Positions 13,087 through 38,434 of a DNA stretch of 64,000 nt are shown here, piece after piece. The notes below the pieces were generated by a model. It ran no database searches, was not told where the DNA came from, and saw nothing but the letters and a program-made list of their open reading frames with translations. The position numbers and the translations under genes are program-made. Origin of the DNA: Candidatus Poribacteria bacterium (GTDB lineage Bacteria; Poribacteria; WGA-4E; WGA-3G); assembly GCA_022823085.1 (NCBI GenBank), contig JAJDXV010000098.1, positions 8,828 to 72,827 on the forward strand. Direction: 5' to 3'. Position 1 is the stretch's first letter; every line of letters begins with the position of its first letter.

Positions 13087-14520
13087 TCAAATATCAGAAC
13101 GGAAGAACTTCAGAAACGCCCCGGTTGTCAACGCCGCTAAAAAGAAACAGAGCAGAAGTACATCCACGAGAGAGTGACTCAACGTCTCAACTAACGAGGG
13201 AGTTTTTATGGCGGGGGGCTGCGTGATTGTAACAACATCGTCGGGTCTCATGATTCTTATAGAGACGTGATCTACGATTTTACTAAACAGCTCCGCATAA
13301 AGCATGCCATAATAATGCACGCTGGTGTCAAAGTAGTTGTTTCTTTTTACCTTTCCGGTCTGTGTTAAGTTCGTGACAAGATAAATAAGCGAAGAAGTTG
13401 GGGTGATGCGCGAGAGTGTCTCTCCGACCTGTTCTTGTCGCGCGATTTGACGTTTGTAATCCCGTTCAATTTTATCAGAGTGGTTTTGAAGTTTCGATCG
13501 ATATTCCTCTTCAAGAGGTTTGACACTTTCATCAATTTTTTTCAGTGCTTCCCCTGAGACTGCAGTAACACCTCTCTCATCGGGGGGGATCTCTCTGATA
13601 ATTTTCATTTTTTCCTTGTTGATTTGCTCATTGAAATCATCTCGCATGGCTGTTTTCTCCATGTAGATACTCTGCGCCGTTCGTGTGGGGACAATAAGTT
13701 TAGCTGTCAAAAATCCAACCCGGGGTGTAATTAACGCGGCGAACACCCAGACGGTAAAGGCAACGATGAGTGCTGTCTTGGAAGTGTCTAAGTAGGTAGA
13801 AATCACCGTGCCGATGGCGAAAAACACCGCGATGTAGAGCAGCGAGATAAGTGTCAGACTTAGGACTCGCGGGAAGATATCGGGTTCGCCGAGAGGAAAC
13901 CCCTGCCAGACGATTAACAGTAACCCGAACAGAAACGACACTAAGAAGGGCACCACAAACACAAGGTATCCGCCAATGAGTTTGCTCCATAAGAAGAGGT
14001 CCCGCGGGAGTGCGTTTGACAGGTTAATCCGCAACGTTCCGGCTTCTTTCTCCCCGGCAATAGCATCGAAGGTAAATAACAGTGCCAGTAGACTGAAGAC
14101 TGTGCCGACGACGAACAGAAAATCGAGATGCCCTAATAGATAGGAGACCGAGGAAGACAAGGCAGGTGGGCCTTGGGTGATTCCATTGCGAGTCATGCCG
14201 AGATAGCTCGGCAGCGTCTCACCTAATCCGTTTGCGAAGACACTCATGAGTGTGGGTTTGAGAAAAAGTTTGGAGACTTCGAGTTCGGGTTCCAAAGTGT
14301 CGTTGGGGTTCACGGTGGCTTCTTCGATATTTGCCAGTTTAACGGCTTCTTGGTAATCCACTAAGTTCTGGCGATAATTTTGGTAACTGATAGAAAGGGT
14401 CAGCGGGATGAGCAGGAGACACATCAAAAGGAGGGCGACGAACCTTGCACTCAGAATATGATGCATCATCTCTTTTTGAATCAATGTCATTAACATGGTA
14501 ACTTCTCCTCTATTTTTCAT
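13087..14520 (-). CDS. ABC-2-type transporter permease with a long cytoplasmic/coiled insertion
   Basis: Multiple hydrophobic spans (LLMCLLLIPLTL, FVVGTVFSLLALLF, GGYLVFVVPFLVSFLFGLLLIVW, ...) and a charged ~110-aa insert. Last gene of cassette 1. Confidence 0.45.
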   Translation of the reverse strand: MKNRGEVTMLMTLIQKEMMHHILSARFVALLLMCLLLIPLTLSISYQNYRQNLVDYQEAVKLANIEEATVNPNDTLEPELEVSKLFLKPTLMSVFANGLGETLPSYLGMTRNGITQGPPALSSSVSYLLGHLDFLFVVGTVFSLLALLFTFDAIAGEKEAGTLRINLSNALPRDLFLWSKLIGGYLVFVVPFLVSFLFGLLLIVWQGFPLGEPDIFPRVLSLTLISLLYIAVFFAIGTVISTYLDTSKTALIVAFTVWVFAALITPRVGFLTAKLIVPTRTAQSIYMEKTAMRDDFNEQINKEKMKIIREIPPDERGVTAVSGEALKKIDESVKPLEEEYRSKLQNHSDKIERDYKRQIARQEQVGETLSRITPTSSLIYLVTNLTQTGKVKRNNYFDTSVHYYGMLYAELFSKIVDHVSIRIMRPDDVVTITQPPAIKTPSLVETLSHSLVDVLLLCFFLAALTTGAFLKFFRSDI

Positions 14521-14583
14521 TGATGAACGGCTCTATCTTTCGCAGCAGCGGTTGTAGATTAGGATGTGTTGCGGAATAGAGCA

Positions 14584-16209
14584 TCAAGGGGACAACAACG
14601 CCGATAGCTTTGGTTCATGTTTTGCCGGTTGATCTGATAGTTCCACGGTGCGATAAGGGCGTTCTTTCATCCACTGTCTAGGGGTCCAAGTTTTTGTAAA
14701 ATCAACCTCCGTGAAATCAGCGGCATCAATAATTTTAATATACACTTGGTCTGTTCCAGCAAATATGGGACTCTCATTGAGTTGATAGCCGAGTCGGATC
14801 CAATGCTTGTTAAGATAAGCTTCAACTTGACTGTGTCCGACAATCGTAACTTGATTGGGAGCCGATGGTTTCTCGTAAGAAAAGCTGCCAGCGACTCTTT
14901 CATCATTCAGGTTTTTAACCAGTCGCTTCCATTCACCTGTGCCTTTGTAATAATATATCAGGGGGACTCCCATGGTTACACGGGCAGGAATGCCGACGGC
15001 TCTCAACATTGTAGCAAGGAGGCGTGCCCGAGAAATACAGGCACCATATTGTTTTCGCTTAAACATTGAGTCACCAAAGTAATTCACCGCTAAAGCCTCT
15101 GTGACCTCTGCTTGGGTTACCTCCCTGCCTATGCTCTCAAAGAACGACCAGTCGGTAACGAGTTCTCCGTGCTGTTTATAAGTGTAAATAAAAGGGGCGT
15201 AAAGAGGAAGGGTTAATTTCATTTGCCCAACTTCGTGCATGAGTTTAGCTAGGACGTCTAATGTATTCGTTGCAGTGGATAGCATTTGCTGAATCTCCAG
15301 CTGCATTTCTGGTGAGTAATTCAGATCATAAGCAGGTGCAACATACTTTCTGAAGGATCCAGAGGGGGACTGATACGGATATGGTTCTGGAAGTAGAACG
15401 GGGGAAGCATACGGATAAACAATAACCTCTACCTTCTGATAGTCGGACTGCGTACTTTCCATAAGTCGTGCGTCTTGGAAAAGATCGTTCATCGCATCAA
15501 TATTCCAGGGCGGTTTTATATCAAGAACTGCCCTGATATTATAGGTATACTCTCTTCTCTCATCCCAATCTGTGTCGGATATCCCATCTCTATCACTATC
15601 AGCTAAGGTTGGATCTGTTCGATATTTGCAATACTCTTGATAATCTGTCAATCCATCCGCATCTGTATCAGAGGTTGTGGAGAGCGTGCCGAGTTGGGCT
15701 TCGAGTTCATCATCTAAGCCATCTTTGTCTGTGTCGCGTAGGGTTCCTGCATTAAATTTCTCGATGCGACTTTGCATTGTATGCGAGGGGGCGGTCATAA
15801 ACGTCAAGACATATTCATTGAGAGGTCTGCCCCATTTCCCTTTCATCAAGCCAGGGTCGTGGGATGTATTGTTTAAGTCGTCGTTCAAGACAATGCCATA
15901 AAACGCTTCTGGTTTTAACGGTTCTGTGAGATTCAAGGCTAAAATTGTTCGGTGTTCATCCATCCATTTGGGTGTGCCTTTGATCCGCATTCCTCGAAAG
16001 GTAAGGTGTTTTTCTTTTCTCATGGACTGATTAAAGACAAACCTAATTTGCCGTGTCTCAATTGGGACATGAGTTGCTGACATCGTTGGCACGGTTTCGA
16101 TAACTTTAGGGGCTGGCAAGAAACGTTTCACCAGAGATGGCAATAATGCCACGCAAAAAATTAGGATAAAAATAGTAAGGAGAAGCCGTTCTATTTTGAT
16201 TTTAGGCAT
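14584..16209 (-). CDS. Secreted/anchored protein: N-terminal Ig-like region, thrombospondin-type-3-like Ca-binding repeats, C-terminal transglutaminase-like cysteine-protease fold
   Basis: N-terminal TM/signal. DTDKDGLDD, DTDADGLTD and DSDRDGISD repeats. GACISRARLLATMLRAVGIPARV ... GHSQVEAYLNKHWIRLG fits the Cys/His pattern of the transglutaminase core. Confidence 0.55.
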   Translation of the reverse strand: MPKIKIERLLLTIFILIFCVALLPSLVKRFLPAPKVIETVPTMSATHVPIETRQIRFVFNQSMRKEKHLTFRGMRIKGTPKWMDEHRTILALNLTEPLKPEAFYGIVLNDDLNNTSHDPGLMKGKWGRPLNEYVLTFMTAPSHTMQSRIEKFNAGTLRDTDKDGLDDELEAQLGTLSTTSDTDADGLTDYQEYCKYRTDPTLADSDRDGISDTDWDERREYTYNIRAVLDIKPPWNIDAMNDLFQDARLMESTQSDYQKVEVIVYPYASPVLLPEPYPYQSPSGSFRKYVAPAYDLNYSPEMQLEIQQMLSTATNTLDVLAKLMHEVGQMKLTLPLYAPFIYTYKQHGELVTDWSFFESIGREVTQAEVTEALAVNYFGDSMFKRKQYGACISRARLLATMLRAVGIPARVTMGVPLIYYYKGTGEWKRLVKNLNDERVAGSFSYEKPSAPNQVTIVGHSQVEAYLNKHWIRLGYQLNESPIFAGTDQVYIKIIDAADFTEVDFTKTWTPRQWMKERPYRTVELSDQPAKHEPKLSALLSP

Positions 16210-16241
16210 TTTCTTTGTCCTGTTTTCTCAAGAAATACGAA

Positions 16242-17906
16242 TTAAAGAGTGAGTGTAGACAGTAGCCTATCGGCTTTATCGGCATCTTGGAGCAGATACC
16301 TTAGGACTGTCCGAATTTCCTCCGAGGTATGATCTGTCAGGAGTGTTTGCGCGACTCCTTCCTCAACGCGCTGCTTAAAAAGTCCGTCAAGTTGCATCGC
16401 CCCTGTTTTCGTGACATTCTGTCCCTTTTCGTAGTATTGGGCGAAAGCAACATCGGGATATTTTGGTTTTGTGCTTTGGTTTCTTTTCCTGTTAAGTTGA
16501 GAAAATAATGTGACGAAACGTTGTGCTGTTCGATCCCAAGAGTAGTTCTTGACGACTTGTCGGGCCTGAGTTGACAAAGTTTCCCTTCTCTCCTGATCCA
16601 CGATTAATGTGTGAATCTGTTCTGAAATGGCGGTTGTTGGCATCATAAACTTACCGGTCATGTCCTCTCGAGTAAGTGGGACGGATATTAGACATGCCGC
16701 CAGGTCTTCAGGTAACTTCGTTGAATTGAGAGCGATCCCCGGTACCCCGCACGCAAGTGCCTCAAGCACTATGGAGAAGGACGTGCCAATAACTGTTGGA
16801 AAAATGATAAGTTTGCAAGCGTTGTAAATCCAAGGGAGGGCGACGATATCCTCTGGTTGCTGAAGATTAATATAAAAGACATTAGGGTAGCGTTGATATT
16901 TCTGATGTGCGAGGATGGGGTCAAGAACGATGAAAACAACATCCTTGTGTAGGTTTGCCAACTCCGCTATCAGTTCTACGCTATTTTGGGGTTGGAAGCC
17001 ATTGAGGATTCCAACCACTGGTGCCTCCAGAACGCTTTTCTCTCCAACAATTGAAGCGACTATCTCTCTGGCGTGTTGATGCTTTTTCGGGGAATAAACT
17101 TGCGTATCCACTCCATTAGGGATAGTGTGCAGTGCTTTGGGAGGAAATGATTGGATCGCGGCCAACTCATCTTCTATCCAAGGCGTGTCGGGACAAATTT
17201 GGTCGAAATCCCGCCGGAGTGCTTGATGGCTTAGCACCCTGTTAAGCGTTGCTTCGCGCAGATTTCTATCACTATAGATGCGAGAAACGACGGGTATAGT
17301 ATTGTGCCGAAAGTAGTTCAACTCTTCGTAAGGATGCGGGGAAAGTGCGAGAATTCCGTTGCAGTCCCTGACGATGAAACGATTCGAGGCATGCGTCACC
17401 TGATTCGTTGATTCAAAAATGTCGGAGACGAATTGAATGCCGAGTTCCATGAGTTGTTCTCGTTGTGCCAAGGCTTTCGAGTCGTTATCAATTTCTACAA
17501 ATACTTCGGCATACTTTGCGAGTGCCTTCAACAGATTATAAATCTCAACATTTGTATTTGGACTCAAAATTCCTTTATAGTTCATAAAACTGTGAGGAAC
17601 AAATATCCTTAATCTATCCTCGGCTGATGTTGGTGGGAAAATCGGCACCCTTTCAGGTTCAAACAGAAGGGTTTCTATGTCCCCGCTCAATGCATTCAGA
17701 CTTCCAAGAATTTGTCCTTCCGAATATTGGTTCCCGAGTTTTTCAAGGATACGTGCGTTATCAGATGTGCCGCAGAGTTCCAGAATTTCTGCGGCGATGG
17801 CATCGATTTGAAATATTTCTCCTGTTTGAAGATTCGTGACGTACCAAATTCCGTCCTTTTCAAATTTGTAGATGTGTTGTTGAAGTGTCCTTGGAAATCT
17901 AATCAT
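16242..17906 (-). CDS. GT4-family glycosyltransferase with an N-terminal PqqD/RRE-like peptide-binding domain and a conserved C-terminal helical tail
   Basis: N-terminus HIYKFEKDGIWYVTNLQTGEIFQIDAIAAEILELCGTSDNARILEKL... (HKF..dg.yv.dl....i.e.d pattern of SPASM-maturase RREs). GT core ...TSFSIVLEALACGVPGIALNS. Tail VEEGVAQTLLTDHTSEEIRTVLRYL. Confidence 0.65.
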   Translation of the reverse strand: MIRFPRTLQQHIYKFEKDGIWYVTNLQTGEIFQIDAIAAEILELCGTSDNARILEKLGNQYSEGQILGSLNALSGDIETLLFEPERVPIFPPTSAEDRLRIFVPHSFMNYKGILSPNTNVEIYNLLKALAKYAEVFVEIDNDSKALAQREQLMELGIQFVSDIFESTNQVTHASNRFIVRDCNGILALSPHPYEELNYFRHNTIPVVSRIYSDRNLREATLNRVLSHQALRRDFDQICPDTPWIEDELAAIQSFPPKALHTIPNGVDTQVYSPKKHQHAREIVASIVGEKSVLEAPVVGILNGFQPQNSVELIAELANLHKDVVFIVLDPILAHQKYQRYPNVFYINLQQPEDIVALPWIYNACKLIIFPTVIGTSFSIVLEALACGVPGIALNSTKLPEDLAACLISVPLTREDMTGKFMMPTTAISEQIHTLIVDQERRETLSTQARQVVKNYSWDRTAQRFVTLFSQLNRKRNQSTKPKYPDVAFAQYYEKGQNVTKTGAMQLDGLFKQRVEEGVAQTLLTDHTSEEIRTVLRYLLQDADKADRLLSTLTL

Positions 17907-18000: not shown

Positions 18001-19752
18001 CTATGCCAAGGTGTTAAGAAAATTCTGGACCCGCTCAACGACTTGGGCAGCCTTTGACGTATCGTCTAAGACGTGTGTTAAAACGGCTTCGACCTGTTTG
18101 GGTGTGTGTCGTTTCAGCAATGTCAGTGCTAGGCCCTCTTCCATCGTTTGAACGTATGCCCCTTTTTGCTGTAGCGGTGTCTCCAGAGATGGCGTCAAAT
18201 TGAGGAGGAGTGCTCGGTTTTCGACTTGATTCTGAAAAGCATCAAAATAGGGAACGAAAGCGACAGATAGATCAGGCGATGTTCTGTGATTTTGTTTGAT
18301 TCTATTCAAATTTTGAAAGAGTTGAATAAGATGTTTCACACACCGCTCCCAAGTAAAAGCCAATGCCCGGGATCGTGCCTTCTCACCAAGTTCATGGCGA
18401 AAATCATCTTCAAGCAGAGAAACAATACCTTTAGAAAGTTCTGCCGCTGACACAGCGGCGGCGAACCCCGCCATGTCTTCTGAAAACTCCTTCGCAGGGA
18501 CAACTATTCCCGTTTCCCCGACAACCTCCGGCAATCCATCAAATCTCGGAACAACAGGAGGCACACCACATGCCATCGCTTCCAAGAGTGTGAGTCCGAA
18601 AGTCTCTTCTGCCGCCATAGAGGGGAAACAGTAAATATCAAAAGCGTTGTAGAGAGTCGGTAACTGTTTTCTGGGTAAAAAACCGGCATAGATTAAGTTA
18701 TCTGGCAAGGGACCAAACGAAGGTCTTAGTAAAAAATTCCCGCCCACCAAGAAAAGCAGATCGGGATGCATTTCAGCCAATTGGATAAAGACATGTGCCC
18801 CTTTCTCTGGCTGAAACCGCGAGAGAAAACCAACTGTTAACTTCTCCTCAATTCGCGTATCTTCAAGAAGTGTGGCGATCTCTGTTTTTGCCTTGGATTT
18901 ATTTAGGGGTCTGAAGGTATTGGCATCTACTCCATTTTGAAGCGTGTGAAAATGAGATGTATCCCCAACAAATCTTGCGTAGTATCTGGCAACAGAGTCT
19001 GAAGGTGCTGTGAAGGCATCATAGGCACGCATTATGGAATGATAGAACAGTGTCGTGCTGATTGCTAACCCTGCGTGTCCCCTCGGTGCATGATTCTGTA
19101 GGATAATGGGTAGATCGACTTCTCGGAAGAAAGGAACGAGGTCATAACTTCCCCAGCTTTGATGTGCCAAGATGCCGTTGACGCCAAGCTGATTTAACCT
19201 TTGGTTGAATCTTCGGGGTGATTGCAGTATTTCCTCTGCGGGCAGTCCCACTGTATAGAGGCCTGGAGCGATTTCTCCTTCTGTTTCCCCGGATAGGTAG
19301 ATATCAGCAAACTTTGAGAGACTTCTCGACATGTGATATAAAGCAACGTTGGTGCCTGCTTCAACTGTTTCGGGGTTTAAAAACCATGAGTCTTTACTTT
19401 GCGGGACATATATCTTTAACCGCTCGCTGTCCGCTGCAGGAAGACCGCCCCATGAAGGGAGAGAAAAAATTAATCCGTTACTTTGAAAATCACCAAGTAA
19501 TTCTAAGGTTTCGAGAACCAAATTCCTATCGTAGGTTTGACTCAACTGATTAATTAATTCTTGTGTTTCCAATATAGGTGCCAATTCCAGGGCATCCCAA
19601 GCAATTTGATTAATTTCAACTATCATGAAGCGAGAAAGATCTGCAACATAGAATTTATCATCGTGCTTGAATTTGTGAATGTGACATGTCTGGGTTGGGC
19701 ATTGAAGCATGGAAAACCCTCTTATGGAAAATGTTGATGCTATTGTGTTCAA
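18001..19752 (-). CDS. GT4-family glycosyltransferase with an N-terminal PqqD/RRE-like domain
   Basis: HIHKFKHDDKFYVADLSRFMIVEINQIAWDALELAPILETQELINQLSQTY...LELLGDFQSNGLIF. GT core EETFGLTLLEAMACGVPPVVP. Tail MEEGLALTLLKRHTPKQVEAVLTHVL. Closest paralogue is 36521..38266. Confidence 0.7.
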   Translation of the reverse strand: MNTIASTFSIRGFSMLQCPTQTCHIHKFKHDDKFYVADLSRFMIVEINQIAWDALELAPILETQELINQLSQTYDRNLVLETLELLGDFQSNGLIFSLPSWGGLPAADSERLKIYVPQSKDSWFLNPETVEAGTNVALYHMSRSLSKFADIYLSGETEGEIAPGLYTVGLPAEEILQSPRRFNQRLNQLGVNGILAHQSWGSYDLVPFFREVDLPIILQNHAPRGHAGLAISTTLFYHSIMRAYDAFTAPSDSVARYYARFVGDTSHFHTLQNGVDANTFRPLNKSKAKTEIATLLEDTRIEEKLTVGFLSRFQPEKGAHVFIQLAEMHPDLLFLVGGNFLLRPSFGPLPDNLIYAGFLPRKQLPTLYNAFDIYCFPSMAAEETFGLTLLEAMACGVPPVVPRFDGLPEVVGETGIVVPAKEFSEDMAGFAAAVSAAELSKGIVSLLEDDFRHELGEKARSRALAFTWERCVKHLIQLFQNLNRIKQNHRTSPDLSVAFVPYFDAFQNQVENRALLLNLTPSLETPLQQKGAYVQTMEEGLALTLLKRHTPKQVEAVLTHVLDDTSKAAQVVERVQNFLNTLA

Positions 19753-19850
19753 ATTAACTTTTCTATTTTCGATACACTCGTTATTGAAATCACTTTGCTC
19801 TGAATATCAGTTTACGATAAACAGAAGCAAAGTAATTTCAGTTAGGAATG

Positions 19851-20069
19851 TTAGATTGCTGTAATTACAGTCCCATCAGGAAGGACTGTCGTGCTAGCTT
19901 GCGCGAGCGACTCGCTGAGTGTGAGTGCTGCTGCAAACGCTCCGATTGCGGCGGCGTTTTTGACACCGACACTACCAGTTTCAGAGCGGACGAATTCAGA
20001 AATGGTCTTTTTACTGACTGCTTTGATTCGGTTCAGTTCAGTTACTTTCACAGGTTTTTCTCCTTTCAT
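19851..20069 (-). CDS. Small Flp-prepilin-like peptide; candidate precursor/substrate of cassette 1
   Basis: MKGEKPVKVTELNRIKAVSKKTISEFVRSETGSVGVKNAAAIGAFAAALTLSESLAQASTTVLPDGTVITAI. A GTG 18 nt downstream has a better RBS (AAGGAG). It shares the F-x-x-SE-x-G-x-x-G-(V/I)-(K/R) plus hydrophobic stretch with 31197..31457. The promoter-like motif lies ~90 nt upstream. Confidence 0.55.
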   Translation of the reverse strand: MKGEKPVKVTELNRIKAVSKKTISEFVRSETGSVGVKNAAAIGAFAAALTLSESLAQASTTVLPDGTVITAI

Positions 20070-20153: not shown

Positions 20154-20191
20154 ATAATTAAGGACACAATTTTGCGGTGGAAAGGGTGCAG
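20154..20191 (-). promoter_or_regulatory. Conserved promoter-like motif, copy 1 (minus strand CTGCACCCTTTCCACCGCAAAATTGTGTCCTTAATTAT)
   Basis: One of 8 same-orientation copies; lies upstream of the small peptide gene. Confidence 0.5.
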
Positions 20192-20214: not shown

Positions 20215-21360
20215 TCAGAGGATTTGACTGATATCGACATCCCTGAGAAAAGAATGAACCATTCCCTTGGCGAGAAAGTTCACCAGTGCCCCTGCAACAA
20301 TCATGAAAGCAAAGGGGATCTTTTCTTGAATGAGCAAACTATTTCCAAACTTCAGAAAGCAGCCTTGCTCAGCAAGTCGCTGCAAGTCTGCTATTTGCGC
20401 CTGTGTCAATCCTTCGGAGGAAACATCGACGACAATATTATCTGCTGCTGGATTTGCAAAACCGACTGGGACCTTTACATGTATATCGGTTGCGTGTGGG
20501 CCTGGCATCCTGAGGATGCGTTCTGCGGGGATCATGTTAGGTTTAAGGGCTTTGATGGGTGTTGGCTTTGTAAACAAGGAACGGACGTAAGAACTGAATA
20601 TGAGTAGGCACAACGAAATTAGAAAAATATAGAAGATTAAACTCCCAAGGTCGATCAGCGATCGAATCAGTAAAAATATTGCCAGCGGGACAAAGAGCAT
20701 ATCAAATGCAAGTTGATACTTCTCTGGGATATGCCTTCTAACGCCCTTATTGAAGGCGAAGGCGATCATTACAAACAGGGCAAGTCGAAGGGCGAAGTCT
20801 AGCTCTATGCCGAGCCGTGATGGTATGTAAAAAGCCAATCCACCGACCGTTATATATGAAAACACTTCAAGGATGCGTCTCGGAAATTGTTTCAGTTGCA
20901 TCCGAAAACTTTCCGAAATTAATTGCTGCTGTAGCCGCAACGGCATTTTGTAAACTGCTTTCACAGTGACATAGATAAAAAACAGCAAAAAAATATTAGT
21001 CAGCAAAATCAACGGATAAAACTGCGTCTCTACAGTTTGGCTGAAGGCACTTGGGGGCATCAGTAAGATGATACCCCAAAACAATTTCGCATCTCCCGCT
21101 GCCCATATTCCTGTGTAAAACATCGCGAACGAGATCCCGAATCCGCCCAAAACGGTTGCGCAACTGTGAGCCCAGGTTATCTCACCTGCGGTTATGAAAA
21201 GTGCTTGACTGATACCGCCGAGAGCGATCAAAGTTAGGGTGTAGCTATTGGCAATTTTCCCATAGCGGAAATCGGTATAGCCTGTATAGAGCCCACAACT
21301 GAGGATCGCCAAGAATATTAGGTTTTCGTGTGTCAGAAGTTCAAAAATATTGATGTCCAT
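20215..21360 (-). CDS. Polytopic membrane protein with an A24 (prepilin/TadV-type) aspartic peptidase-like N-terminal half and an extra C-terminal domain
   Basis: ...YTGYTDFRYGKIANSYT... and ...GIWAAGDAKLFWGIILLMP... match the two Asp motifs of A24 peptidases. About 10 TM segments. The C-terminal ~110-aa soluble insert (MIPAERILRMPG...LTQAQIADLQRLAEQGCF) is shared with 33679..34815. Confidence 0.6.
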   Translation of the reverse strand: MDINIFELLTHENLIFLAILSCGLYTGYTDFRYGKIANSYTLTLIALGGISQALFITAGEITWAHSCATVLGGFGISFAMFYTGIWAAGDAKLFWGIILLMPPSAFSQTVETQFYPLILLTNIFLLFFIYVTVKAVYKMPLRLQQQLISESFRMQLKQFPRRILEVFSYITVGGLAFYIPSRLGIELDFALRLALFVMIAFAFNKGVRRHIPEKYQLAFDMLFVPLAIFLLIRSLIDLGSLIFYIFLISLCLLIFSSYVRSLFTKPTPIKALKPNMIPAERILRMPGPHATDIHVKVPVGFANPAADNIVVDVSSEGLTQAQIADLQRLAEQGCFLKFGNSLLIQEKIPFAFMIVAGALVNFLAKGMVHSFLRDVDISQIL

Positions 21361-22861: not shown

Positions 22862-23006
22862 TGTGATCTCCATTTTAATAGTTATCAGCAGTCAGGTTGC
22901 TGCGCTTTCAGCGATCAGTAGATTGTGTGGCGGCTGTGGACGTTTGTCCCTACCCGAAAATCTCTTTGCTGAAGGCTGGCAGACCACCGACAGCCGAGAG
23001 CCATCA

Positions 23007-31039: not shown

Positions 31040-31077
31040 ATAATTAATGACACAATTTTGGCGTAGAAAGGGTGCAG
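31040..31077 (-). promoter_or_regulatory. Conserved promoter-like motif, copy 3
   Basis: Minus strand CTGCACCCTTTCTACGCCAAAATTGTGTCATTAATTAT, upstream of the sigma-fusion gene. Confidence 0.45.
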
Positions 31078-31196
31078 AATGAAAAAAAAACAGAAAAAAC
31101 GAATTTTAAGTTAAAAATTACGTGCGTTTGATAAAGGGAAAGAGGCGTTCCCACTGCAAAAAACAGTGGGAACCAGAACACAGGTTAACCCATAGG

Positions 31197-31457
31197 TTAG
31201 GAACATTCAGAACCCAATTCTCCGTCACATGTCCCGTCAGACCATCCTGTAGAACATGTGAGTTGGCACGTCTCGCCGTCTCCGCAGTCAGCATTACTAT
31301 GACACTCATAAGAGGCTTCGGCGATGGGTGTATGCATGACTTGTGATAACAAGAAGGCACTGCCTGCTACCCCCAAAACTAAGGGGGCTCTGATGCCTGC
31401 GCGTCCAACTTCGGATGTAAGGAATTGCTTGATTTTGTTATTAATGTTCTTCTTCAT
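31197..31457 (-). CDS. Small Flp-prepilin-like peptide with a Cys-rich C-terminus; candidate precursor/substrate of cassette 2
   Basis: From the ATG at 31457 (AAGGA RBS): MKKNINNKIKQFLTSEVGRAGIRAPLVLGVAGSAFLLSQVMHTPIAEASYECHSNADCGDGETCQLTCSTGWSDGTCDGELGSECS (6 Cys). The N-terminal half aligns with 19851..20069. Confidence 0.55.
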   Translation of the reverse strand: MKKNINNKIKQFLTSEVGRAGIRAPLVLGVAGSAFLLSQVMHTPIAEASYECHSNADCGDGETCQLTCSTGWSDGTCDGELGSECS

Positions 31458-31772: not shown

Positions 31773-33644
31773 TCATTGACAAGCTGTTCCGCTGGTTTGC
31801 TTTAGCAAGTGCGTAACTTGAAATCGGTGATTGTCTACCAAAAGGGTTGGTGAAGCCTTAATGTCCAGTGCCGCGGCACGCTGGATGTTTTCTCGGAAGC
31901 GATGCTCGGTTTCTGGCGTGGCAAACAACCGCTGAATCCTTTCAACATCGATACCGAGTTTCTCCGCGCAGTCTTCCCAGGTCTTGTCCAATTTTTTGCC
32001 GCGACATAAGATGTAGTCGAGATACCGGTGCGGGTATTCTTCCGCGATGAGGAGCTGCCGGATGTTTTCAGCGACTTCAGGGTAACCGTGTAGGCTCACA
32101 AATGGCGTTATATCCTGCGGCGAAGGGTTCTCCTTCTCAGCTGCGATAAACCGGAGCTTGAAGTCGATTTGGTCGCCAAACTTTTTCACGATTGGAATAA
32201 TCTGCTCTTCCGCCTGAACACCGAAAGGGCAGTAGCTCATTACAAATAGTTCCAAAGTGGGTTTGCCCATGCGTGCGATGCGAGACCTCAAGAGTGCCTC
32301 CAAATTCATCGGCGCGCCGCTGTGGTCTATATCCTTGGTATGGAGTGCTACGACCTCAGCAAACCCGGGTGAATGTTTTGTATCGTGGCATTCTAAACAG
32401 GCAGTCGTATCGGCACCGTTGCGGATGTTCGTTTTCTTAGGATTGCCGATATGGTGTTTACCGGGCCCGTGGCAGGTTTCACATTGCACACCTTTGAGGG
32501 TTAGGTCGGGGTCACCTATCTGAAAGCCGGTTGGGTAACCAAACCCCGTGGTGTGGCAGGAGACACACCCTGCATCGAAGTGGCGTTGCTTTTTCAGAAG
32601 CGTTTGAAAGGCGAAGGCATGTCGCGTTGTGGACCACTGGCGATATTCTTGTTGGTGACACTTCCGACACGCTGTCGCTGAGACGTATCCGTTTTGCCCA
32701 TCTTCTTCCAAGTGTTGCCCAGCGAAAAGCCGGGGCAGCGGAGCTGGCTGCCCGACAACTTGATAGAAATCGGTGAGGAGTTGACGCACGGATTCAGATT
32801 CGGGGACATCCCCGGTGAGGGCGACTTGTGTGGCATAATGGTGGTCGAGTCCTCCGTTTGGGTGTATCCAGAGTGCTAAGACTCCGAGTGTTTTACCTTC
32901 CGGCTGGCAGCCGACAGAAAGTGTCCCGTTCTTAGTTCTCACGGTGTGGATGTTCTCTGGCTGAATGAGAATATCAATGTACTTGGAGACCTCAGCGTTG
33001 CCGATCCCGACGATAATATCGGCTTGGGCTCTAATGTGTTGGGTTGCCTCTCCGGCGACCAAAGCAACACTATGTGGTCCGACTTGCTGAATAAGGAAGG
33101 GTTGAGTGAAATCGTTTGCCGTGGCAGCCAAGAATGGAAATGCCGCGGCAGCGTGTTGCTGCTTCAGATAGCCATCGTCATAGGAAAGATCGGTTTCACT
33201 CAAGGCGAGGGCGGTGTATTGCATCATCGCCATTGCTTTGAGGTTAACACTGCACCGCTGCGCATCCATCTTTTCTGTGCCATCAAAAATGTTTCCTGCG
33301 TCTACCAAGAGTGTCGGGAATCCGTGGTGTCGAATTTGCTCGACGATGTGGGCGCGCCTGGGCAGTCCGCCCGATTGTTCTTGATAACACCCGCAGGGCT
33401 CGAGATGGCTTTTAGTGCCCCCGGTATGCAAGATGAGGAGAGAAGGCGGTTTGTCGTTTCTGAGTGCTGAGAGAATATCCTCTAAGCGTTCTCCTAAAAC
33501 GGGGCGCGCTTGTTGCTTGACCCGTTCTATCTGGCGGCGTCTTTGAGATTCCGACCACTGCGTGTAGAGGGGTGGTAATGTTACACTTACGGTTAAAAAC
33601 ACTAAAACAAAGATCGCACGTTTCATAAAAACGGACCGAATCAA
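31773..33644 (-). CDS. Exported three-part fusion: metallophosphatase/5'-nucleotidase-like N-domain, tetrahaem c-type cytochrome region, thioredoxin-fold (DsbA-like) C-domain
   Basis: Signal MKRAIFVLVFLTVSV. LILHTGGTKSHLEPCGC...GGLPRRA. Four CxxCH motifs (CRKCH, CVSCH, CETCH, CLECH). LELFVMSYCPFGVQAEEQIIPIVKKFG...SPTLLVDN. Confidence 0.6.
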   Translation of the reverse strand: MIRSVFMKRAIFVLVFLTVSVTLPPLYTQWSESQRRRQIERVKQQARPVLGERLEDILSALRNDKPPSLLILHTGGTKSHLEPCGCYQEQSGGLPRRAHIVEQIRHHGFPTLLVDAGNIFDGTEKMDAQRCSVNLKAMAMMQYTALALSETDLSYDDGYLKQQHAAAAFPFLAATANDFTQPFLIQQVGPHSVALVAGEATQHIRAQADIIVGIGNAEVSKYIDILIQPENIHTVRTKNGTLSVGCQPEGKTLGVLALWIHPNGGLDHHYATQVALTGDVPESESVRQLLTDFYQVVGQPAPLPRLFAGQHLEEDGQNGYVSATACRKCHQQEYRQWSTTRHAFAFQTLLKKQRHFDAGCVSCHTTGFGYPTGFQIGDPDLTLKGVQCETCHGPGKHHIGNPKKTNIRNGADTTACLECHDTKHSPGFAEVVALHTKDIDHSGAPMNLEALLRSRIARMGKPTLELFVMSYCPFGVQAEEQIIPIVKKFGDQIDFKLRFIAAEKENPSPQDITPFVSLHGYPEVAENIRQLLIAEEYPHRYLDYILCRGKKLDKTWEDCAEKLGIDVERIQRLFATPETEHRFRENIQRAAALDIKASPTLLVDNHRFQVTHLLKQTSGTACQ

Positions 33645-33678: not shown

Positions 33679-34815
33679 TTAGAAGAGTTGCGTCAATTTG
33701 AGATAAAACGGACCTTGGCAGAAAATCGTCAGGAGCACACCCAGAGAAATAACGGGTGCGAAGCGAATTGCAGGTTGAATTTTTATTTCATTGTTAAATT
33801 CCGTAAATGCACCCTGTTTTGCGAGATGTTGTAATTGGGCTATCTTCTCAGGTGTGAGTCCTTCGGGATCGGGTGAAATAACGATATCATCGCCCTGACG
33901 ACTTGAGAACTCGACGTGCTTTTTTTCGTAACGGGTACTGCCATTGTCCTGTGGAATCTCGACAATTTGCTCAGCAGGTATCATGCCGACTTGGAGACGG
34001 TTGACATCAACGGTGTTCTCCAATGCCAAACTCACTAAACTCAGAACGAATTGTTTCGCAGCAACGAAAATAAGGAAGGACAGCCCAAAGAAAAAGGTGA
34101 AACCTGAGAGCAAGGTCATTACGGACGGCGTTGCTTGTATTATTAAGCAGACACATAGGAAACTCACAAGTCCATAATAGACCGGGGTTTTCGGCAAAAT
34201 CGATAACAATTTCTGGACCAATGTGAAGCAGACTAAAATTACAGCGAGCCGCAGAAAGGGATCGGTATGCCATCTGGCGACCGCTAACAAGGACGTCAAC
34301 GCCGATCCGACACCAATAAACACGAGTAGACTGAAGAATCTTTCGAGGACTGCTGCTTTTTGAAAGTTGCATCTCAGGAGATACCGCAGAAAATCGCGTT
34401 TATTTTCCATTGATACAAATTTGAAGAGGAGATAACCTAAGATACCTATCGCGTAAGGAATGATGATATTCAGTGCGAGTATCAAGGGGGGAAACCCCAA
34501 AACTCCGCGAAGGCTTTCAAAAAGCGATAGTGGGAATATTAAGCAGAGTCCCCAGAAAAGTTTGGCATCTCCGGGCGAGAAGATCCCGAACCAGTACAAG
34601 GCAAATGCCATAATTCCGCTCCCGAGGAAAAGCCCTAAAATATAGAGTGGTGTCGCTGTGCCAAGATACCACGCCATCAACTGGCTGAGTGTTCCTACAT
34701 AAAGAAGTCCGAGAGAGCAGAAGTTGCGAATCTTCTGTGTCTTCAAGTCGGTATAACTTGCATAGGCACAGAAGGCAGGTGCTAAAAAAATCAGAAAGTA
34801 TTCATAGTGTGACAT
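33679..34815 (-). CDS. A24 peptidase-like polytopic membrane protein, paralogue of 20215..21360
   Basis: ASYTDLKTQKIRN and FSPGDAKLFWGLCLIFP Asp motifs. Same C-terminal insert (MIPAEQIVEIPQ...LTPEKIAQLQHLAKQGAF). Confidence 0.6.
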   Translation of the reverse strand: MSHYEYFLIFLAPAFCAYASYTDLKTQKIRNFCSLGLLYVGTLSQLMAWYLGTATPLYILGLFLGSGIMAFALYWFGIFSPGDAKLFWGLCLIFPLSLFESLRGVLGFPPLILALNIIIPYAIGILGYLLFKFVSMENKRDFLRYLLRCNFQKAAVLERFFSLLVFIGVGSALTSLLAVARWHTDPFLRLAVILVCFTLVQKLLSILPKTPVYYGLVSFLCVCLIIQATPSVMTLLSGFTFFFGLSFLIFVAAKQFVLSLVSLALENTVDVNRLQVGMIPAEQIVEIPQDNGSTRYEKKHVEFSSRQGDDIVISPDPEGLTPEKIAQLQHLAKQGAFTEFNNEIKIQPAIRFAPVISLGVLLTIFCQGPFYLKLTQLF

Positions 34816-34845: not shown

Positions 34846-36505
34846 TTAATATCTCTGCTTTGGGAGAGGGGAGCCCGCTTTAAAATGTTTGAAAATTGAC
34901 TCAATTTCCGTGGTTTTGTGCTGTTCGACGAGCGTCTCTGCCAAAGCTTTTTCAAGATGTTCATATCGGTTGATCCCTAACCGATATGCATCAGATGTCG
35001 TTTGACGTGTCTGCGGATTATACCGGCGGCAGAAGATCGGTGGGAACAAATTCTGAGGTGTTTGATAACTTTCCGTTTCCGAGCATTGGCTTTTCTTAAA
35101 GTGTTGAATAATCTCTGTGGCTGTCTTTTGCCAGGTATATTTTTTTTGTCAAACTTTTTGCGACGCTTTGTGCTGCAGCACGCATATTAGAAGGTACCAA
35201 CCATTGATTTATTGTTGCTGAGAGCTGATGCATCGGTACATGAAAATTGCCAAAATTATCCCATTGGGATTTGATGCTAACGCCGGCACCCGAAACTTCT
35301 GGAGGTAGACCGTATTTGGTCATAGCGATACACGGTGTCCCATAAGCCATTGCCTCTAGAACCACTGAAAGGGATGTTCCCGGAATCGCGGGAAAACAGA
35401 CCAGGTCGAGTGCTTGAAAGAAAATCGGTAGGATCGTAGCCATGTCTTCATCCGCTGCACTGAAAATTACGACGTTGTCTGGAACATTGCTATAATGCTG
35501 TGCTAACACGGCATCATAGACAAAAATGGCGAGGTCTGGGTTGGCTTCAGCGAACTCGGATATCCACGCTGCTCCCTGATTGGGTTCAAATCCGGAAATC
35601 AGTCCGACAACGGGGCGTTGGGCAAACATTGGTTTGTCAAAGAGAGTCGCGGTATGTTGTTTTGCTAAGGCTTTATCAATAGGTTCAACGGCGTTGATGC
35701 CATCTGGGATCACACATAGGTTTTTCTCGGGGATATCAAACTCGTTGAGCCAGGCTTTCATCCACGATGCTTTAACAACTAAGGTATCGTTTGCTTTCTG
35801 ACAGGCCTGGAGATGCAGGAGGGTTTCAAGCAGAGAGTGCTGTAGTTTCTGGGTGTTTTCTATGCAGTGAACGATTGGTACATCGGGGACCTGATAGTAC
35901 AAGAGGTTATCTGTCAAAAATGGCGATAAGAGCAAAATACCATCGTATCCTTTCCTTGCATACCATGCGGGTGTGAAGGTATTGCCTTGATCAACTTTTA
36001 TCTGTCGCATGCGAAGTTTCCCGAAATTTTTGGTATGCTCGGATCGTTGGACGTTTCCTGTTTTGACTTTTGAAAAACTGAGTGTTTCTAACTCGGCGGC
36101 TTGTGTGAGCGTCGTCAAGAGTTGATACCGATTCAGATTCGTGATGTAGTCGAGGGCTGACTTCTCTTTGGTAAAATCAAAGGGAACTAACACCTTGAGT
36201 TTGCGGTCGATGTGTTGTGAAACATCAGATTTCCTGCCGGTGTTAGGTATTTGTGTTAAAAGTTGCCCGTGCTTACTCAGGCGTTGTAACCGCGCGATAC
36301 CCTCAAAGACAGTTGTTGATTTATACTTTCCTTTCAAAGCTTCAACGATTTGATATGCTGTCTGAGTCGCATATCGACCAAGAATGTCCCATTCGACATC
36401 ATTGACTTCAATGATGTCGTTGGTTTCAAGGTCGGCAACATATTTGCGTCCATCTTGTTGAAATTTATGATGCCGGTTCAATCGGTAATCGGTGTAAGAT
36501 GTCAT
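34846..36505 (-). pseudogene. RRE-GT4 glycosyltransferase split by a +1 frameshift in an A8 run (T8 on the plus strand, 35140-35147)
   Basis: ORF 35096..36505 (N-terminus HHKFQQDGRKYVADLETNDIIEVNDVEWDILGRY...) ends ...SLTKKIYLAKDSHRDYSTL*. Removing one A gives ...TKKYTWQKTATEIIQHFKK...NLFPPIFCRRYNP... and joins ORF 34846..35049. That ORF carries the family tail LEKALAETLVEQHKTTEIESIFKHF. Confidence 0.7.
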
Positions 36506-36520: not shown

Positions 36521-38266
36521 TCAGGCGGTTGCCTGGATTAAGCCACAAACCCTTTTGAGGATTGCCTTTGCCTCGGTTTCGTCCTCGACCACGGCGGTAA
36601 GGAGTGCTTCGGCTTCCCTTGCTGTGTGATTTTTCAAAATGCTCAGTACAAGCCCATCTTCAACACGTAGGGGATATGCTGCATCCCGGATCAGACAACG
36701 CTCATAATGCTCATTCATTCCTAATACAAGAGACTTATACCCGATTTTCTGTTTTCCTTGATGGGTTGGTTCGATACCGTGTAAACCGTGGACTGCCTCC
36801 GGGGGTGTGGGTGCGAACACATTGAGGAGTCTATTTGGACTGACGAGTTGTCTTTTCTGATGAAGCCCTTCAAATAATTGGATAATCCGATGTGCGGTTT
36901 TCTCCCAGGTAAAGGAGCGTGCCCGTTCTCTGGCTTTTTTGGAAAGGGATTGCCGGAGTTGATCATTGGTGAACAGCAAGTTAATTTTCTCCGAAAAATC
37001 GAGGGGCGAAGGGTAACTGACAAACGTTGCGATATCCTGGTGAAAGTTCTCGGCATCGGCGATCAAGCCCGCCTCGCCGACGACTGATGGCACGCCATCA
37101 AAATTGGGAACGACAGGCGGCACACCACACGCCATGGCTTCAAGGACAGTGAGACCGAAGGTCTCTTCCCCTGACATTGACAGGAAACAATACACATCAA
37201 AGGCGTTGTAGACCCGCGGCAATGCTTCACGGGGATGGAAACCGGCGTAGACGAGATTGTTGGGGAGATCTCTTGAAGCATATCTTCCGAGACTGGGCCC
37301 TGCGATTAAAAATAAGAGGTGTGGATTCAATTCAGCGAGTTTCAAGTAGACCGAGGCACCTTTTTCAGACTCTACTCGAGAAAGGTAGCCAACGGTTGGG
37401 GTTGTTAGGATGCGATCGTCTCCAAGGTGTTCAGCGAGTGCTTGTTTGGCTTTTTGTTTCTCCATTGGGCGGAACAAAGCCGAGTCTACACCGTTGGGGA
37501 GGGTGTTGAAGAAACTGGTGTCCCAGACATAATCGGCATAGAACTCACGGACATAATCAGAGGGGGCGGTGAAAGCATCGAAATCCCGCATTGCAGCATA
37601 ATGCCGGAGCATGGAATTGATTGCATCGCCACCATGTCCACGGGGTGCATGACACTGAACAAGGATCGGTGGGAGCTCAACATGCTGATACAGCGGTAAG
37701 AGCCATGTCTCATGGTCGCGATGTAAGGTGAGGATGCCGAAATAGGTGGCGTTGAGACGCCGGCTGAGTCGTCCAAAGTCAGCCACACTGATATCTACTT
37801 CATAGACATTATCGGCTAACTTTCGATTTCGGGTGCCAGCAAAATGCAGGTCTACATATTTGGTGAGATGTTCAAACATGTAAGAAAGTGCCATGTTGGT
37901 GCCGGCGGATAACGTTTCAATATCAAAGAAGGAATCTACAGGGATGCCGGGGATCACAACAAGTAACTTGCGCCGCTCGTTTTCCAAGGCGCGGGTTTTT
38001 GTGAGATTCTCACCGCGATTGAATAGCAAGCCTTCTTTTTCGAGTGCTTCAAAGCTTTGAAACGCTTCAAAAATATCGTCCGCTGTATAAGAAGTTTTCA
38101 GTGTTTGGAGGATCCACTCACGCGTGTGGGTTTCGGCGAGTTTTAAGATGTCGACCATCACAGCGGAAAGTTCAATGACACTGGCTTTCTCAAGGTCTGC
38201 GGCATAAAACGCAGCATCTTCTTCAAACAAGTAATGCTTATGTAAAGTTCTGGGAAAATCAAACAA
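36521..38266 (-). CDS. GT4-family glycosyltransferase with an N-terminal PqqD/RRE-like domain
   Basis: LHKHYLFEEDAAFYAADLEKASVIELSAVMVDILKLAETHTREWILQTL...ALEKEGLLF. EETFGLTVLEAMACGVPPVVP. Tail VEDGLVLSILKNHTAREAEALLTAVV. Confidence 0.7.
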   Translation of the reverse strand: MFDFPRTLHKHYLFEEDAAFYAADLEKASVIELSAVMVDILKLAETHTREWILQTLKTSYTADDIFEAFQSFEALEKEGLLFNRGENLTKTRALENERRKLLVVIPGIPVDSFFDIETLSAGTNMALSYMFEHLTKYVDLHFAGTRNRKLADNVYEVDISVADFGRLSRRLNATYFGILTLHRDHETWLLPLYQHVELPPILVQCHAPRGHGGDAINSMLRHYAAMRDFDAFTAPSDYVREFYADYVWDTSFFNTLPNGVDSALFRPMEKQKAKQALAEHLGDDRILTTPTVGYLSRVESEKGASVYLKLAELNPHLLFLIAGPSLGRYASRDLPNNLVYAGFHPREALPRVYNAFDVYCFLSMSGEETFGLTVLEAMACGVPPVVPNFDGVPSVVGEAGLIADAENFHQDIATFVSYPSPLDFSEKINLLFTNDQLRQSLSKKARERARSFTWEKTAHRIIQLFEGLHQKRQLVSPNRLLNVFAPTPPEAVHGLHGIEPTHQGKQKIGYKSLVLGMNEHYERCLIRDAAYPLRVEDGLVLSILKNHTAREAEALLTAVVEDETEAKAILKRVCGLIQATA

Positions 38267-38307
38267 GGTTTTTTCTCACCTTTCTATTGTTCACTAAGAG
38301 TGCTTTC

Positions 38308-38345
38308 AAAATTAAGGACACAATTTTCGGGGCAAAAAGGTGCAT
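38308..38345 (-). promoter_or_regulatory. Conserved promoter-like motif, copy 4
   Basis: Minus strand ATGCACCTTTTTGCCCCGAAAATTGTGTCCTTAATTTT, ~45 nt upstream of the GT start at 38266. Confidence 0.5.
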
Positions 38346-38396
38346 GATTTGAAAAAAATATGCGAACAGAATAGATCTAAAATGCATCCAGCCTTC

Positions 38397-38434
38397 AAAA
38401 TTAAGGACACAATTTTCGGGGCAAAAAGGTGCAT
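38397..38434 (-). promoter_or_regulatory. Conserved promoter-like motif, copy 5 (89-bp tandem duplicate of copy 4)
   Basis: Identical to copy 4 and part of a direct duplication of ~38304-38362. Confidence 0.45.

Follow-up and report, generated by a model that had tools for sequence, protein, structure and literature searches.

The window analyzed here, a 64,000-nucleotide stretch of contig JAJDXV010000098.1 from a Candidatus Poribacteria bacterium, carries two paralogous gene cassettes between positions 13087 and 38434. Each combines a pair of family 4 glycosyltransferases (GT4; GT, glycosyltransferase), an A24-like membrane peptidase and a small peptide gene, and each GT begins with a domain resembling the recognition element (RRE) of RiPPs, peptides that are ribosomally synthesized and then modified post-translationally. 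An earlier note, made from the sequence alone, had proposed these cassettes, and all of the open reading frames (ORFs) that it named are present on the minus strand where it placed them. In transcription order, cassette 1 reads A24-1 (21360 to 20215), pep1, GT-A, GT-B, a transglutaminase-like protein and an ABC-2 permease; cassette 2 reads GT-C, GT-D, A24-2, a UshA-like/cytochrome c554/DsbA fusion, pep2 and an ECF-sigma/BNR fusion. The features at the center of our analysis are as follows (L numbers denote related loci, described below).

18001..19710, minus strand: GT-A, predicted RRE, intact GT4 and helical tail, 569 aa (Pfam PF00534 87.6 bits; R/K/EX7E kept)
16242..17906, minus strand: GT-B, predicted RRE, degenerate GT4 and tail, 554 aa (Glycos_transf_1 21.2 bits)
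36521..38266, minus strand: GT-C, predicted RRE, intact GT4 and tail, 581 aa (Pfam PF00534 84.8 bits)
34846..36505, minus strand: GT-D, predicted RRE, degenerate GT4 and tail, frame interrupted (25.4 bits for ORF 35096-36505)
20215..21360, minus strand: A24-1, A24-like GxGD aspartyl membrane peptidase with a C-terminal beta-rich soluble domain (PF01478 31.4 bits)
33679..34815, minus strand: A24-2, A24-like peptidase, type 2 (PF01478 28.0 bits; Arc_PepC E 0.0012)
19851..20051, minus strand: pep1, 66 aa, from GTG 20051 (ORF to 20069) (P0193; orthologues in L001 and L003-L005)
31197..31457, minus strand: pep2, 86 aa: MKKNINNKIKQFLTSEVG, RAGIRAPLVLGVAGSAFLLSQVMHTPIAEA, then a 6-Cys core (P0124)
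31773..33644, minus strand: signal-anchored fusion of UshA-like (PCGC), multihaem cytochrome c554 and DsbA-like thioredoxin domains, 623 aa (Cytochrome_C554 61 bits, DSBA 27.5 bits)

The N-terminal motif shared by the four GTs, picked out in the earlier note, also occurs in about 100 homologues. We built a profile from 46 N-terminal domains of the window and related loci and compared it with PDB sequences, where it matched residues 5-84 of CteB (5wgg) at E 1.7e-14, the runner-up lying at E 0.016. Pfam PqqD was matched by 26 of the 46 domains (E below 1; best 2.3e-4) and, in a Pfam scan, by one of the four window GTs, and all four weakly match the N-terminus of the SPASM maturase models NF040492 and TIGR03974. 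An AlphaFold model of the domain (pLDDT 88) has the winged-helix-like order b1-b2-b3-a1-a2-a3, with strands at residues 11-16, 19-24 and 29-33 and helices at 35-43, 49-56 and 62-77. When this model was compared with the PDB by Foldseek, the top 16 matches were all RREs, several of them solved with bound leader peptides; they include CteB (rmsd 1.5 Å), TbiB1 and lasso B1 (both with bound leaders), ThcOx, PbtF, TigE and McbB. By sequence profile and predicted structure, the N-terminal domains of all four window GTs are RREs, as the earlier note had supposed. A search of 1.84 billion representative proteins with the same profile returned 581 proteins, 108 of them at E up to 1e-10. The majority are GT fusions of 530-580 aa, and the other matches sampled comprise radical-SAM (rSAM)/SPASM enzymes and, once each, a methyltransferase fusion, a GT-GT fusion and an RRE-GT4-A24 fusion. 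The closest non-GT relatives of this RRE are rSAM/SPASM peptide maturases. Synteny, together with the occurrence of one GT pair per leader class, lends indirect support to a putative role of the RRE in binding the leader of the co-encoded precursor.

The GT4 assignment holds for both pairs, with a difference between the two partners that is visible in their residues. GT-A and GT-C score well above the Pfam Glycos_transf_1 (PF00534) cutoff of 26.4 bits, and GT-B and GT-D, homologous but degenerate, fall slightly under it. GT-A, whose start we corrected from 19752 in the earlier note (ORF 18001-19752) to the ATG at 19710, is 42% identical to GT-C, and both keep the donor-binding R and K (SRFQPEKG) and the EX7E motif (EETFGLTLLEAMA). 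In GT-B and GT-D a G replaces the donor-binding R, the K is gone, and a two-residue deletion takes the first Glu of EX7E. The same pattern extends across 103 full-length GT homologues: 52 keep R/K/EX7E and 51 do not, the first Glu being deleted in 51 of 51 degenerate proteins. All 46 adjacent pairs are ordered active to degenerate, with a median gap of 24 nt, and both members of every pair retain the RRE and the C-terminal helical tail, which the earlier note had recognized in the four window GTs and which we also find in about 100 homologues. GT-B and GT-D are therefore predicted from their sequences to be inactive GT4 homologues, leaving only one potentially catalytic GT per pair. The nearest curated GT4 families include MshA, BshA and GlcN-PG synthase, which are small-molecule or lipid GTs; scores are far under the cutoffs of these families.

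The frameshift reported for GT-D is real in the assembled sequence and consists of one extra A within the A8 run at 35140-35147. Removing it restores a YTWQKT motif, conserved as (Y/F)(T/S)W-x-(K/R)T, and the tail encoded in 34846-35049, an ORF that the tail hidden Markov model (HMM) matches at E 2e-18. We considered whether the frameshift marks a dead cassette and disfavor this; because the downstream frame is intact and conserved, a homopolymer error is more likely.

Three variants of the pair were observed elsewhere. In one clade (L024 5445-6620, L032 4930-6147 and L045 6198-7424) the partner GT is only about 400 aa long, consisting of the RRE and the N-terminal half of the GT fold, a hint that what the partner essentially contributes is its RRE. 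P0361 is a 1024-aa fusion of an active and a degenerate GT, and P0372 (L079 5983-8358) joins a truncated active-type RRE-GT4 in frame to a full A24-like peptidase; either fusion may be natural or assembly-derived. A cytochrome/DsbA fusion, another A24-like gene and a fusion of GT4 with a methyltransferase are also found in L079.

Both membrane proteins belong to the A24 family, as first proposed: they pass the curated Pfam Peptidase_A24 (PF01478) cutoff of 26.5 bits, and the catalytic Asp residues are conserved in 74 of 75 (D30) and 75 of 75 (D90) homologues. The A24 signatures take the forms YTD...KI.N and (A/S/P)-x-G-D-A-K-L-F-W, which read YTDLKTQKIRN and SPGDAKLFWG in A24-2. Both proteins also give weak Arc_PepC matches, and public records label homologues 'A24 family peptidase' or 'prepilin peptidase'. 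A model of A24-1 (pLDDT 78.7) comprises some nine helices, then a soluble domain rich in beta structure, and a last helix. NCBIfam contains no model for these A24-like proteins or for the peptides.

The small ORFs proved to be conserved genes. F-x-x-S-E-x-G occurs in pep1 and pep2, the only such ORFs of the window, and searches by regular expression, HMM and tblastn found no further peptide gene or pseudogene there. Pep1 most likely starts at GTG 20051, in agreement with its orthologues and with public gene calls; its leader ends in FVRSETG and is followed by SVGVKNAAAIGAFAAALTLSESLAQA and a Cys-free 14-aa core, STTVLPDGTVITAI. We then scanned genomes with an A24-like alignment, which gave 78 loci that we examined with 10-kb flanks. 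An HMM search of these loci recovered 152 peptide ORFs, all on the strand of the A24-like gene and up to seven per 20 kb. Public annotation calls the peptide genes 'hypothetical protein', with no Pfam domain; in our own scans, Pfam and NCBIfam returned no Flp or class III family, and the matches seen were sub-threshold DUF4342 on the leader and hydrophobic region and knottin-, defensin- and NCR-like noise on the cores.

The precursors share a common build, in which an 18-26-residue pro-segment ending in F-x-x-S-E-x-G precedes a Sec-like signal and a hypervariable core. The family consensus is MKxNLRGKIREF(L/V)xSEEG (K/R)VGVK(S/A)PLTLGVAxGSxLLAQAxVxxPxAxA followed by the variable core, and the F, E and G of the motif are invariant across phyla. 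After the invariant G, position +1 is K/R, +2 V, +5 K (99 of 136), +6 S/A, +7 P and +8 L. The next ~18 residues (+7 to +24) are moderately hydrophobic (mean Kyte-Doolittle value 1.54), and, on a heuristic signal-peptide reading, the end of A-x-A lies 30-32 residues past G in 95 of 136 peptides, with the first Cys at a median of +33. Cores have a median length of 37 aa and mostly even Cys counts, 6 (43 peptides) and 4 (37 peptides) being commonest; type-1 cores are about 14 aa and Cys-free, and those of type 2 have 4 or 6 Cys in about 37 aa. The loose framework of the cores is C-x4-DC-x2-G-x2-C...G(T/S)C. Between same-locus paralogues the leader is 65% identical (ratio of non-synonymous to synonymous differences, pN/pS, 0.35) and the core 23%. 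The 5' untranslated region and Shine-Dalgarno sequence of the peptide genes are conserved, including a near-universal CCGGCAGAAAGGAG element. Judged from sequence, the general RiPP pattern of a conserved leader, a variable core and an adjacent RRE-bearing enzyme and protease is present.

Two further observations concern the peptide genes. About 20 of those of type 2 carry a conserved GGGAGGGCTTCACTCCCGTAGCGA, a possible hairpin, at a fixed distance (about -114 from the start codon). In L078 (9026-9478), from a Clostridia bin of the human gut, an A24-like gene lies beside a small ORF whose leader resembles those above, DFLYEEEG/NISRGK (slash after the Gly), a hydrophobic region and VFA; the cargo is a Ser/His/Gly-rich low-complexity tail, not Cys-rich, which suggests that the leader/peptidase module carries other cargo types.

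The earlier note had suggested mining genomes for co-occurrence of GTs, A24-like proteins and peptides, and this uncovered tight same-strand linkage in >45 loci. Most of the 78 loci come from Candidatus Poribacteria metagenome-assembled genomes, some of which supply up to four; the remainder belong to Latescibacterota, Anaerolineales, Gemmatimonadota or unclassified bacteria, or come from two archaeal bins and a single bin of Clostridia. In the poribacterial loci, an RRE-GT4 pair accompanies nearly every A24-like gene on the same strand within 10 kb. The cassettes fall into two main types and several rarer ones, which share about 30-40% identity with both. Type 1 (11 loci) has A24-1, GT-A/B, the transglutaminase-like protein, the ABC-2 permease and Cys-free peptides, and lacks the Dsb fusion. 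Type 2 (35 or more loci) has A24-2, GT-C/D, the cytochrome/DsbA fusion (38), ECF-BNR (29), phosphomannomutase (PMM; 30), NTP-transferase (20) and Cys-rich peptides. A24 clades, defined as clusters at 50% identity, pair one to one with leader classes around the invariant Gly, examples of which are (slash after the Gly) SEEG/(K/R)VGVK(S/A)PL, SETG/SVGVKNAA, (Q/K)EDG/NVGRKNAL, E(E/D)G/GTGK, STSG/HVEPRQGL and SESG/EVSAKQGF. Distinct leader classes occur together in one genome, including in paralogous cassettes that each have their own A24 clade.

The cytochrome/DsbA fusion goes together with Cys-rich cargo. It is found in 38 loci (type 2), is absent from the Cys-free type-1 cassette, and adjoins the A24-like gene in the GT-less locus L062 and in L079. 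We regard it as a conserved core member linked to Cys-rich cargo and propose that it is the disulfide oxidase for the cores. The N-terminal half of the protein resembles the NCBIfam 'UshA-like (seleno)protein' model NF041198 (190 bits, under cutoff); the fusion has PCGC where selenoprotein relatives have PCGU.

The genes and regulatory features surrounding this core are listed here.

25316..26050, minus strand: ABC transporter ATPase, which may work with the ABC-2 permease at 13087 (Pfam ABC_tran 101 bits; conserved in L001, L003, L043)
23007..25283, minus strand: 758-aa envelope protein with NEW3/NPCBM-associated domain and C-terminal transmembrane segment (Pfam PF10633; 83-84% identical orthologues in L001, L003, L043)
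21470..22873, minus strand: TolC-like outer-membrane efflux protein (Pfam OEP 120 bits)
14584..16209, minus strand: transglutaminase-like (Cys-protease fold) envelope protein with Big_5 and Ca-binding-type repeats (Pfam Transglut_core 32.5 bits)
13087..14520, minus strand: ABC-2 family permease (Pfam ABC2_membrane_2 105 bits; conserved in 10 loci; type-1 cassette only)
41296..41991, minus strand: sugar-1-phosphate nucleotidyltransferase, probable donor-sugar supply (Pfam NTP_transferase 101 bits; adjoins type-2 cassettes in 20 loci)
39815..41365, minus strand: phosphoglucomutase/phosphomannomutase, probable donor-sugar supply (Pfam PGM_PMM I-III; 30 loci)
27941..30901, minus strand: extracytoplasmic function (ECF) sigma factor joined via a transmembrane segment to a BNR/sortilin-type beta-propeller, candidate regulator (Pfam Sigma70_r2/r4 and BNR; 29 loci)
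26147..26173, minus strand: promoter-like motif upstream of the ABC ATPase
20163..20189, minus strand: promoter-like motif upstream of pep1
31049..31075, minus strand: promoter-like motif upstream of the ECF sigma/BNR gene
38302..38650, minus strand: three to four tandem ~90-nt units with promoter-like motif, upstream of GT-C
19774..19851, minus strand: strong RNA hairpin directly after the pep1 stop (folding free energy -33 kcal/mol, z -7.5)
31147..31174, minus strand: 11-bp GC-rich hairpin after the pep2 stop, then T-rich tracts

The ABC ATPase, the NEW3-domain protein and the TolC-like protein lie 5' of cassette 1. Because a promoter-like motif stands at 26147-26173, cassette 1 probably reaches up to this point and these three genes are probable members of its unit. 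The transglutaminase-like protein is conserved in 10 type-1 loci and, like the permease, is confined to the type-1 cassette. Directly upstream of cassette 2 are the sugar-phosphate mutase and nucleotidyltransferase genes. The DNA motif that the earlier note listed for both cassettes is a genuine composite, GCACCYTTT-N6-7-AAAATTGTGTC(C/A)TTAATT, with six copies in the window, all on the minus strand, against 0 expected. One copy each stands upstream of the ABC ATPase, of pep1 and of the ECF-BNR gene, two lie upstream of GT-C within the ~90-nt tandem units, and one precedes an apparently non-coding stretch; a half-site is found ahead of the neighboring lasso precursors described below. The motif may be an ECF-type promoter. 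Since the exact promoter-like 15-mer was found in just 2 of the 78 other loci, it appears to be a strain-level rather than a family-wide element. The orphan copy at 39514-39540 (region 39499-39560) faces about 850 nt without a convincing ORF; regular expression, HMM and tblastn searches of 38650-39500 recognized nothing encoded there, and this stretch might contain a gene in decay or a non-coding RNA.

The remainder of the window holds other elements of note. Between the cassettes (26517-27608) are a 159-aa fragment of a DDE_3 transposase and a DUF7119-like protein of 203 aa, whose gene is conserved beside cassettes in five further loci. Directly flanking cassette 1, positions 1-12401 form a plasmid- or integrative-element-like block with ParA, a tyrosine integrase, a DNA methylase, a Rep3 initiator and a 918-aa primase-like protein. 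A lasso-peptide gene cluster occupies 42132-56100 on the minus strand. Its precursor ORFs, four or five in number (54524-54670, 55153-55308, 55371-55520, 55777-55917, plus the fragment 55635-55724), take the form MRKMLKPEKKTYEAPRLVxYGNA...; the cluster further encodes a B2 protein at 52059-52472 (NF033537 78 bits, cutoff 33), a cyclase at 50095-52038, a GT4, a GT28/MGT-like GT, a PRMT-like methyltransferase, two ABC exporters and a MacB permease. On the plus strand, 59723-63023 encodes two neighboring proteins that both carry an RRM_1 RNA-recognition motif at the N-terminus; one of them is fused to a RAMP-superfamily domain, an unusual CRISPR-related architecture.

Domain identities, conservation, synteny and the co-variation of leader class with peptidase clade are observed directly. 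Building on them, we propose with moderate confidence that each cassette encodes a RiPP-like pathway that matures small ribosomal peptides under the guidance of their leader and exports them. In this pathway, a cytoplasmic heterodimer of the active RRE-GT4 and its dead RRE-GT4 paralogue would dock on the leader via the RRE domains, and the active GT would add a sugar from a nucleotide donor that the neighboring PMM and nucleotidyltransferase may supply. The inner-membrane A24-family GxGD aspartyl protease would then remove the pro-segment at the invariant Gly. The residual signal, comprising K/R-V-G-V-K, the ~18-residue hydrophobic stretch and A-x-A about 31 residues past G, would drive export, after which the signal peptide would be cut off at A-x-A. 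Where the cargo is Cys-rich, disulfides would be made by the periplasmic cytochrome c554/DsbA fusion; for type-1 cargo the transglutaminase-like protein and the ABC-2/TolC export set would act instead. The ECF sigma/beta-propeller fusion and the shared promoter-like motif probably co-regulate the units, and in sponges the peptides may serve antagonism or interaction with the host.

More tentatively, and at somewhat under an even chance, we suggest that the products form a new RiPP class of secreted glycopeptides, disulfide-rich or short and beta-hairpin-like. Their leader would be read by an RRE-GT4/pseudo-GT4 heterodimer and their pro-segment cut by the intramembrane-type A24 GxGD aspartyl protease as a 'pro-signal peptide' checkpoint that couples modification to Sec export. 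The sponge symbionts (Poribacteria, as well as Latescibacterota and Anaerolineales, which lack the GTs) would hold dozens of hypervariable cores in each genome for use against competitors or in host interaction. The earlier note had offered either a glycosylated ribosomal peptide or a mini-pilin; the gene and peptide anatomy of the former is borne out, its functional reading is the one that we also favor, and the mini-pilin is disfavored.

Several points weigh against the proposed pathway. We infer, rather than observe, that the peptide is the GT acceptor, what the sugar and its site are, that cleavage falls at the Gly, the order of the steps and the role of the product. A prior A24 cut has no evident rationale if signal peptidase I removes the signal anyway. 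A conserved Ser/Thr acceptor was not established in the cores. G[ST]C is enriched there (53 of 102, 5.5 expected) and may be a folding motif only; tried as a glycosylation sequon, it does not discriminate, as it is found in GT-less loci too. The hydrophobic segment is conserved beyond what is seen in ordinary signal peptides, which fits a retained pilin-like helix. As to the peptidase, FlaK (3s0x) had the highest Foldseek probability with the A24-1 model (0.82; TM(target) 0.45), at a non-significant E of 0.25, and A24-like profiles of 2 and 18 sequences found neither FlaK nor any other relevant match among PDB sequences. The GT-A24 fusion is known from a single assembly. Finally, the A24/peptide module lacks GTs within 10 kb in Latescibacterota, Anaerolineales and L062, so the leader F, E and G are more likely determinants of the peptidase than of the RRE. 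The same absence implies that the GTs are accessory, the core being peptidase and peptides (with Dsb) and the GT pair a mainly poribacterial addition.

Among the alternatives, a mini-pilin or surface-anchored product with a class-III-type signal survives best, and we consider it unlikely. Here the A24 protein would cut after Gly and the helix would be kept, as an anchor like that of archaeal PibD substrates or within a fibre, and the GT pair would glycosylate the subunit as in pilins and flagellins. The cassettes do share much with Flp/Tad pilins and their peptidases (TadV/CpaA/FppA). Both have a small peptide, a leader ending ...(D/S)E-x-G before a hydrophobic stretch (F-x-x-S-E-x-G resembles Flp leaders) and a dedicated A24 peptidase with two essential Asp; moreover, the A24 protein here has an archaeal-type C-terminal domain, its clades co-vary with the cleavage-site context, and the hydrophobic segment is strongly conserved. 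However, what defines a Flp pilin past the cleavage Gly is E/D at +5 together with Y at +6 and the Flp motif (PMC3244431), and these features are missing: +5 and +6 are K and S/A, and none of 34 family members matches Pfam Flp_Fap, even at E up to 10. The likeness of the peptides to Flp prepilins therefore stands for the leader motif and fails for pilin identity. The hydrophobic stretch is only moderately so, and A-x-A stands at a fixed distance directly ahead of the first Cys; a Cys-rich C-terminal domain is present. The peptidase is also distinct, being about 380 aa with its C-terminal soluble domain. As the earlier note had remarked, Tad machinery is lacking: the window contains no pilus genes, tadA, tadB/C and rcpA included, and a TadA/PilB-type Walker A signature (GxTGSGK[ST]T) is absent from the window and from the 78 loci with 10-kb flanks, genomes beyond these loci not having been searched.

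It is improbable that the unit comprises only the A24-like peptidase, the peptides and Dsb, with the RRE-GT4 pair acting on a lipid, cell-wall or exopolysaccharide acceptor, or with its N-terminal domain being regulatory or oligomerizing and the synteny reflecting a shared envelope regulon. The GT-less module in other phyla is consistent with such an arrangement, as are the small-molecule and lipid substrates of the closest curated GT4 families (scores far sub-cutoff) and the promoter-like motif, which also fronts unrelated units, including the lasso precursors. Yet this RRE subfamily otherwise sits on rSAM/SPASM peptide maturases, and both members of every pair keep the RRE even if the GT half has degenerated or is truncated. 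Tight linkage to peptide genes on the same strand extends over >45 loci, every paralogous cassette has its own GT pair and its own leader class, and a GT-A24 fusion exists. Quite improbable, too, is a third possibility, in which the A24-like protein is a signal-peptide peptidase clearing leader or signal fragments, or an immunity or export component, and another protease or signal peptidase I matures the peptide: GxGD proteases do include signal-peptide peptidases, A-x-A already offers a maturation site, and the protein is much larger than TadV-type peptidases, with extra transmembrane helices, but an invariant Gly in Flp-like context just before the hydrophobic stretch is prepilin peptidase geometry (PMC3244431), and peptidase clade and Gly-flanking residues co-vary one to one.

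Compared with known systems, we rate the proposed pathway as RiPP-type leader-guided maturation, but with an unprecedented enzyme set and an unusual precursor design. The RRE places it nearest to sactipeptide/SCIFF maturation by CteB and related rSAM/SPASM enzymes, which have the same RRE subfamily (the CteB matches above) and likewise act on small Cys-rich ribosomal substrates with a conserved leader. The catalytic domain here is GT4 and not rSAM, the cassettes contain no rSAM gene, and, given the Dsb fusion, the Cys residues probably form disulfides rather than the thioethers of sactipeptides. If glycosylation is real, the nearest known product type would be the glycocins (sublancin/SunS, glycocin F, thurandacin), which are ribosomal, disulfide-containing and glycosylated. 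Glycocin systems use GT2 S-/O-glycosyltransferases, double-glycine leaders and C39 peptidase-ABC exporters (see PMC8068269). The cassettes have instead an RRE-fused GT4 pair, a putative A24 peptidase, a Sec-like signal and a Gram-negative-type symbiont host; Pfam scans found no C39 domain in the cassettes and the peptides lack a double-glycine leader, in line with the earlier note's view that these are not glycocins.

The accessory Sec proteins GtfA/GtfB provide a parallel to the GT pair. A cytoplasmic GT of GT-B fold works there with a non-catalytic, substrate-handling paralogue of the same fold, and glycosylation precedes export; the pairing of an active with a non-catalytic paralogue is like that predicted here. 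GtfA/GtfB nonetheless lack an RRE and modify large serine-rich adhesins exported via SecA2/Y2, and the TIGR02918 match here is weak (E 0.0019). For the peptidase, archaeal FlaK/PibD are alike in combining a GxGD membrane protease with a beta-rich soluble domain (weak Arc_PepC; FlaK the best-probability fold match), and PibD also processes secreted non-pilin proteins. The likeness is not significant by sequence or Foldseek E, basic residues here follow the Gly rather than precede it, and the hosts are mostly bacteria. RRE-glycosyltransferase fusions were flagged in passing by RRE-Finder as a possible new RiPP architecture (PMC7470986; PMC12710340), the 2025 paper naming PF00535 (GT2) for the fusion (PMC12710340). 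Those reports are without the GT4 pair, the A24 peptidase, the precursor family and the poribacterial distribution, and we found no description of this RRE-GT4/A24/peptide system in the literature.

If the proposed pathway is correct, it would represent a new RiPP enzyme logic, in which an RRE-guided GT4 works with a dead paralogue partner and an A24 aspartyl protease serves as leader peptidase, the first prepilin-peptidase homologue in that role, and it would tie RiPP maturation to a two-step signal peptide. The wider multi-phylum A24/peptide/Dsb module may in itself be an unrecognised protein-sorting or processing system. The leader and its enzymes would offer a pair for peptide glyco-engineering. 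For the Poribacteria, the cassettes would disclose that these uncultivated sponge symbionts possess a large, fast-diversifying family of Cys-rich peptides, a genome having several cassettes and as many as dozens of precursors, and would give a testable handle on the interactions of these bacteria with competitors or with the sponge.

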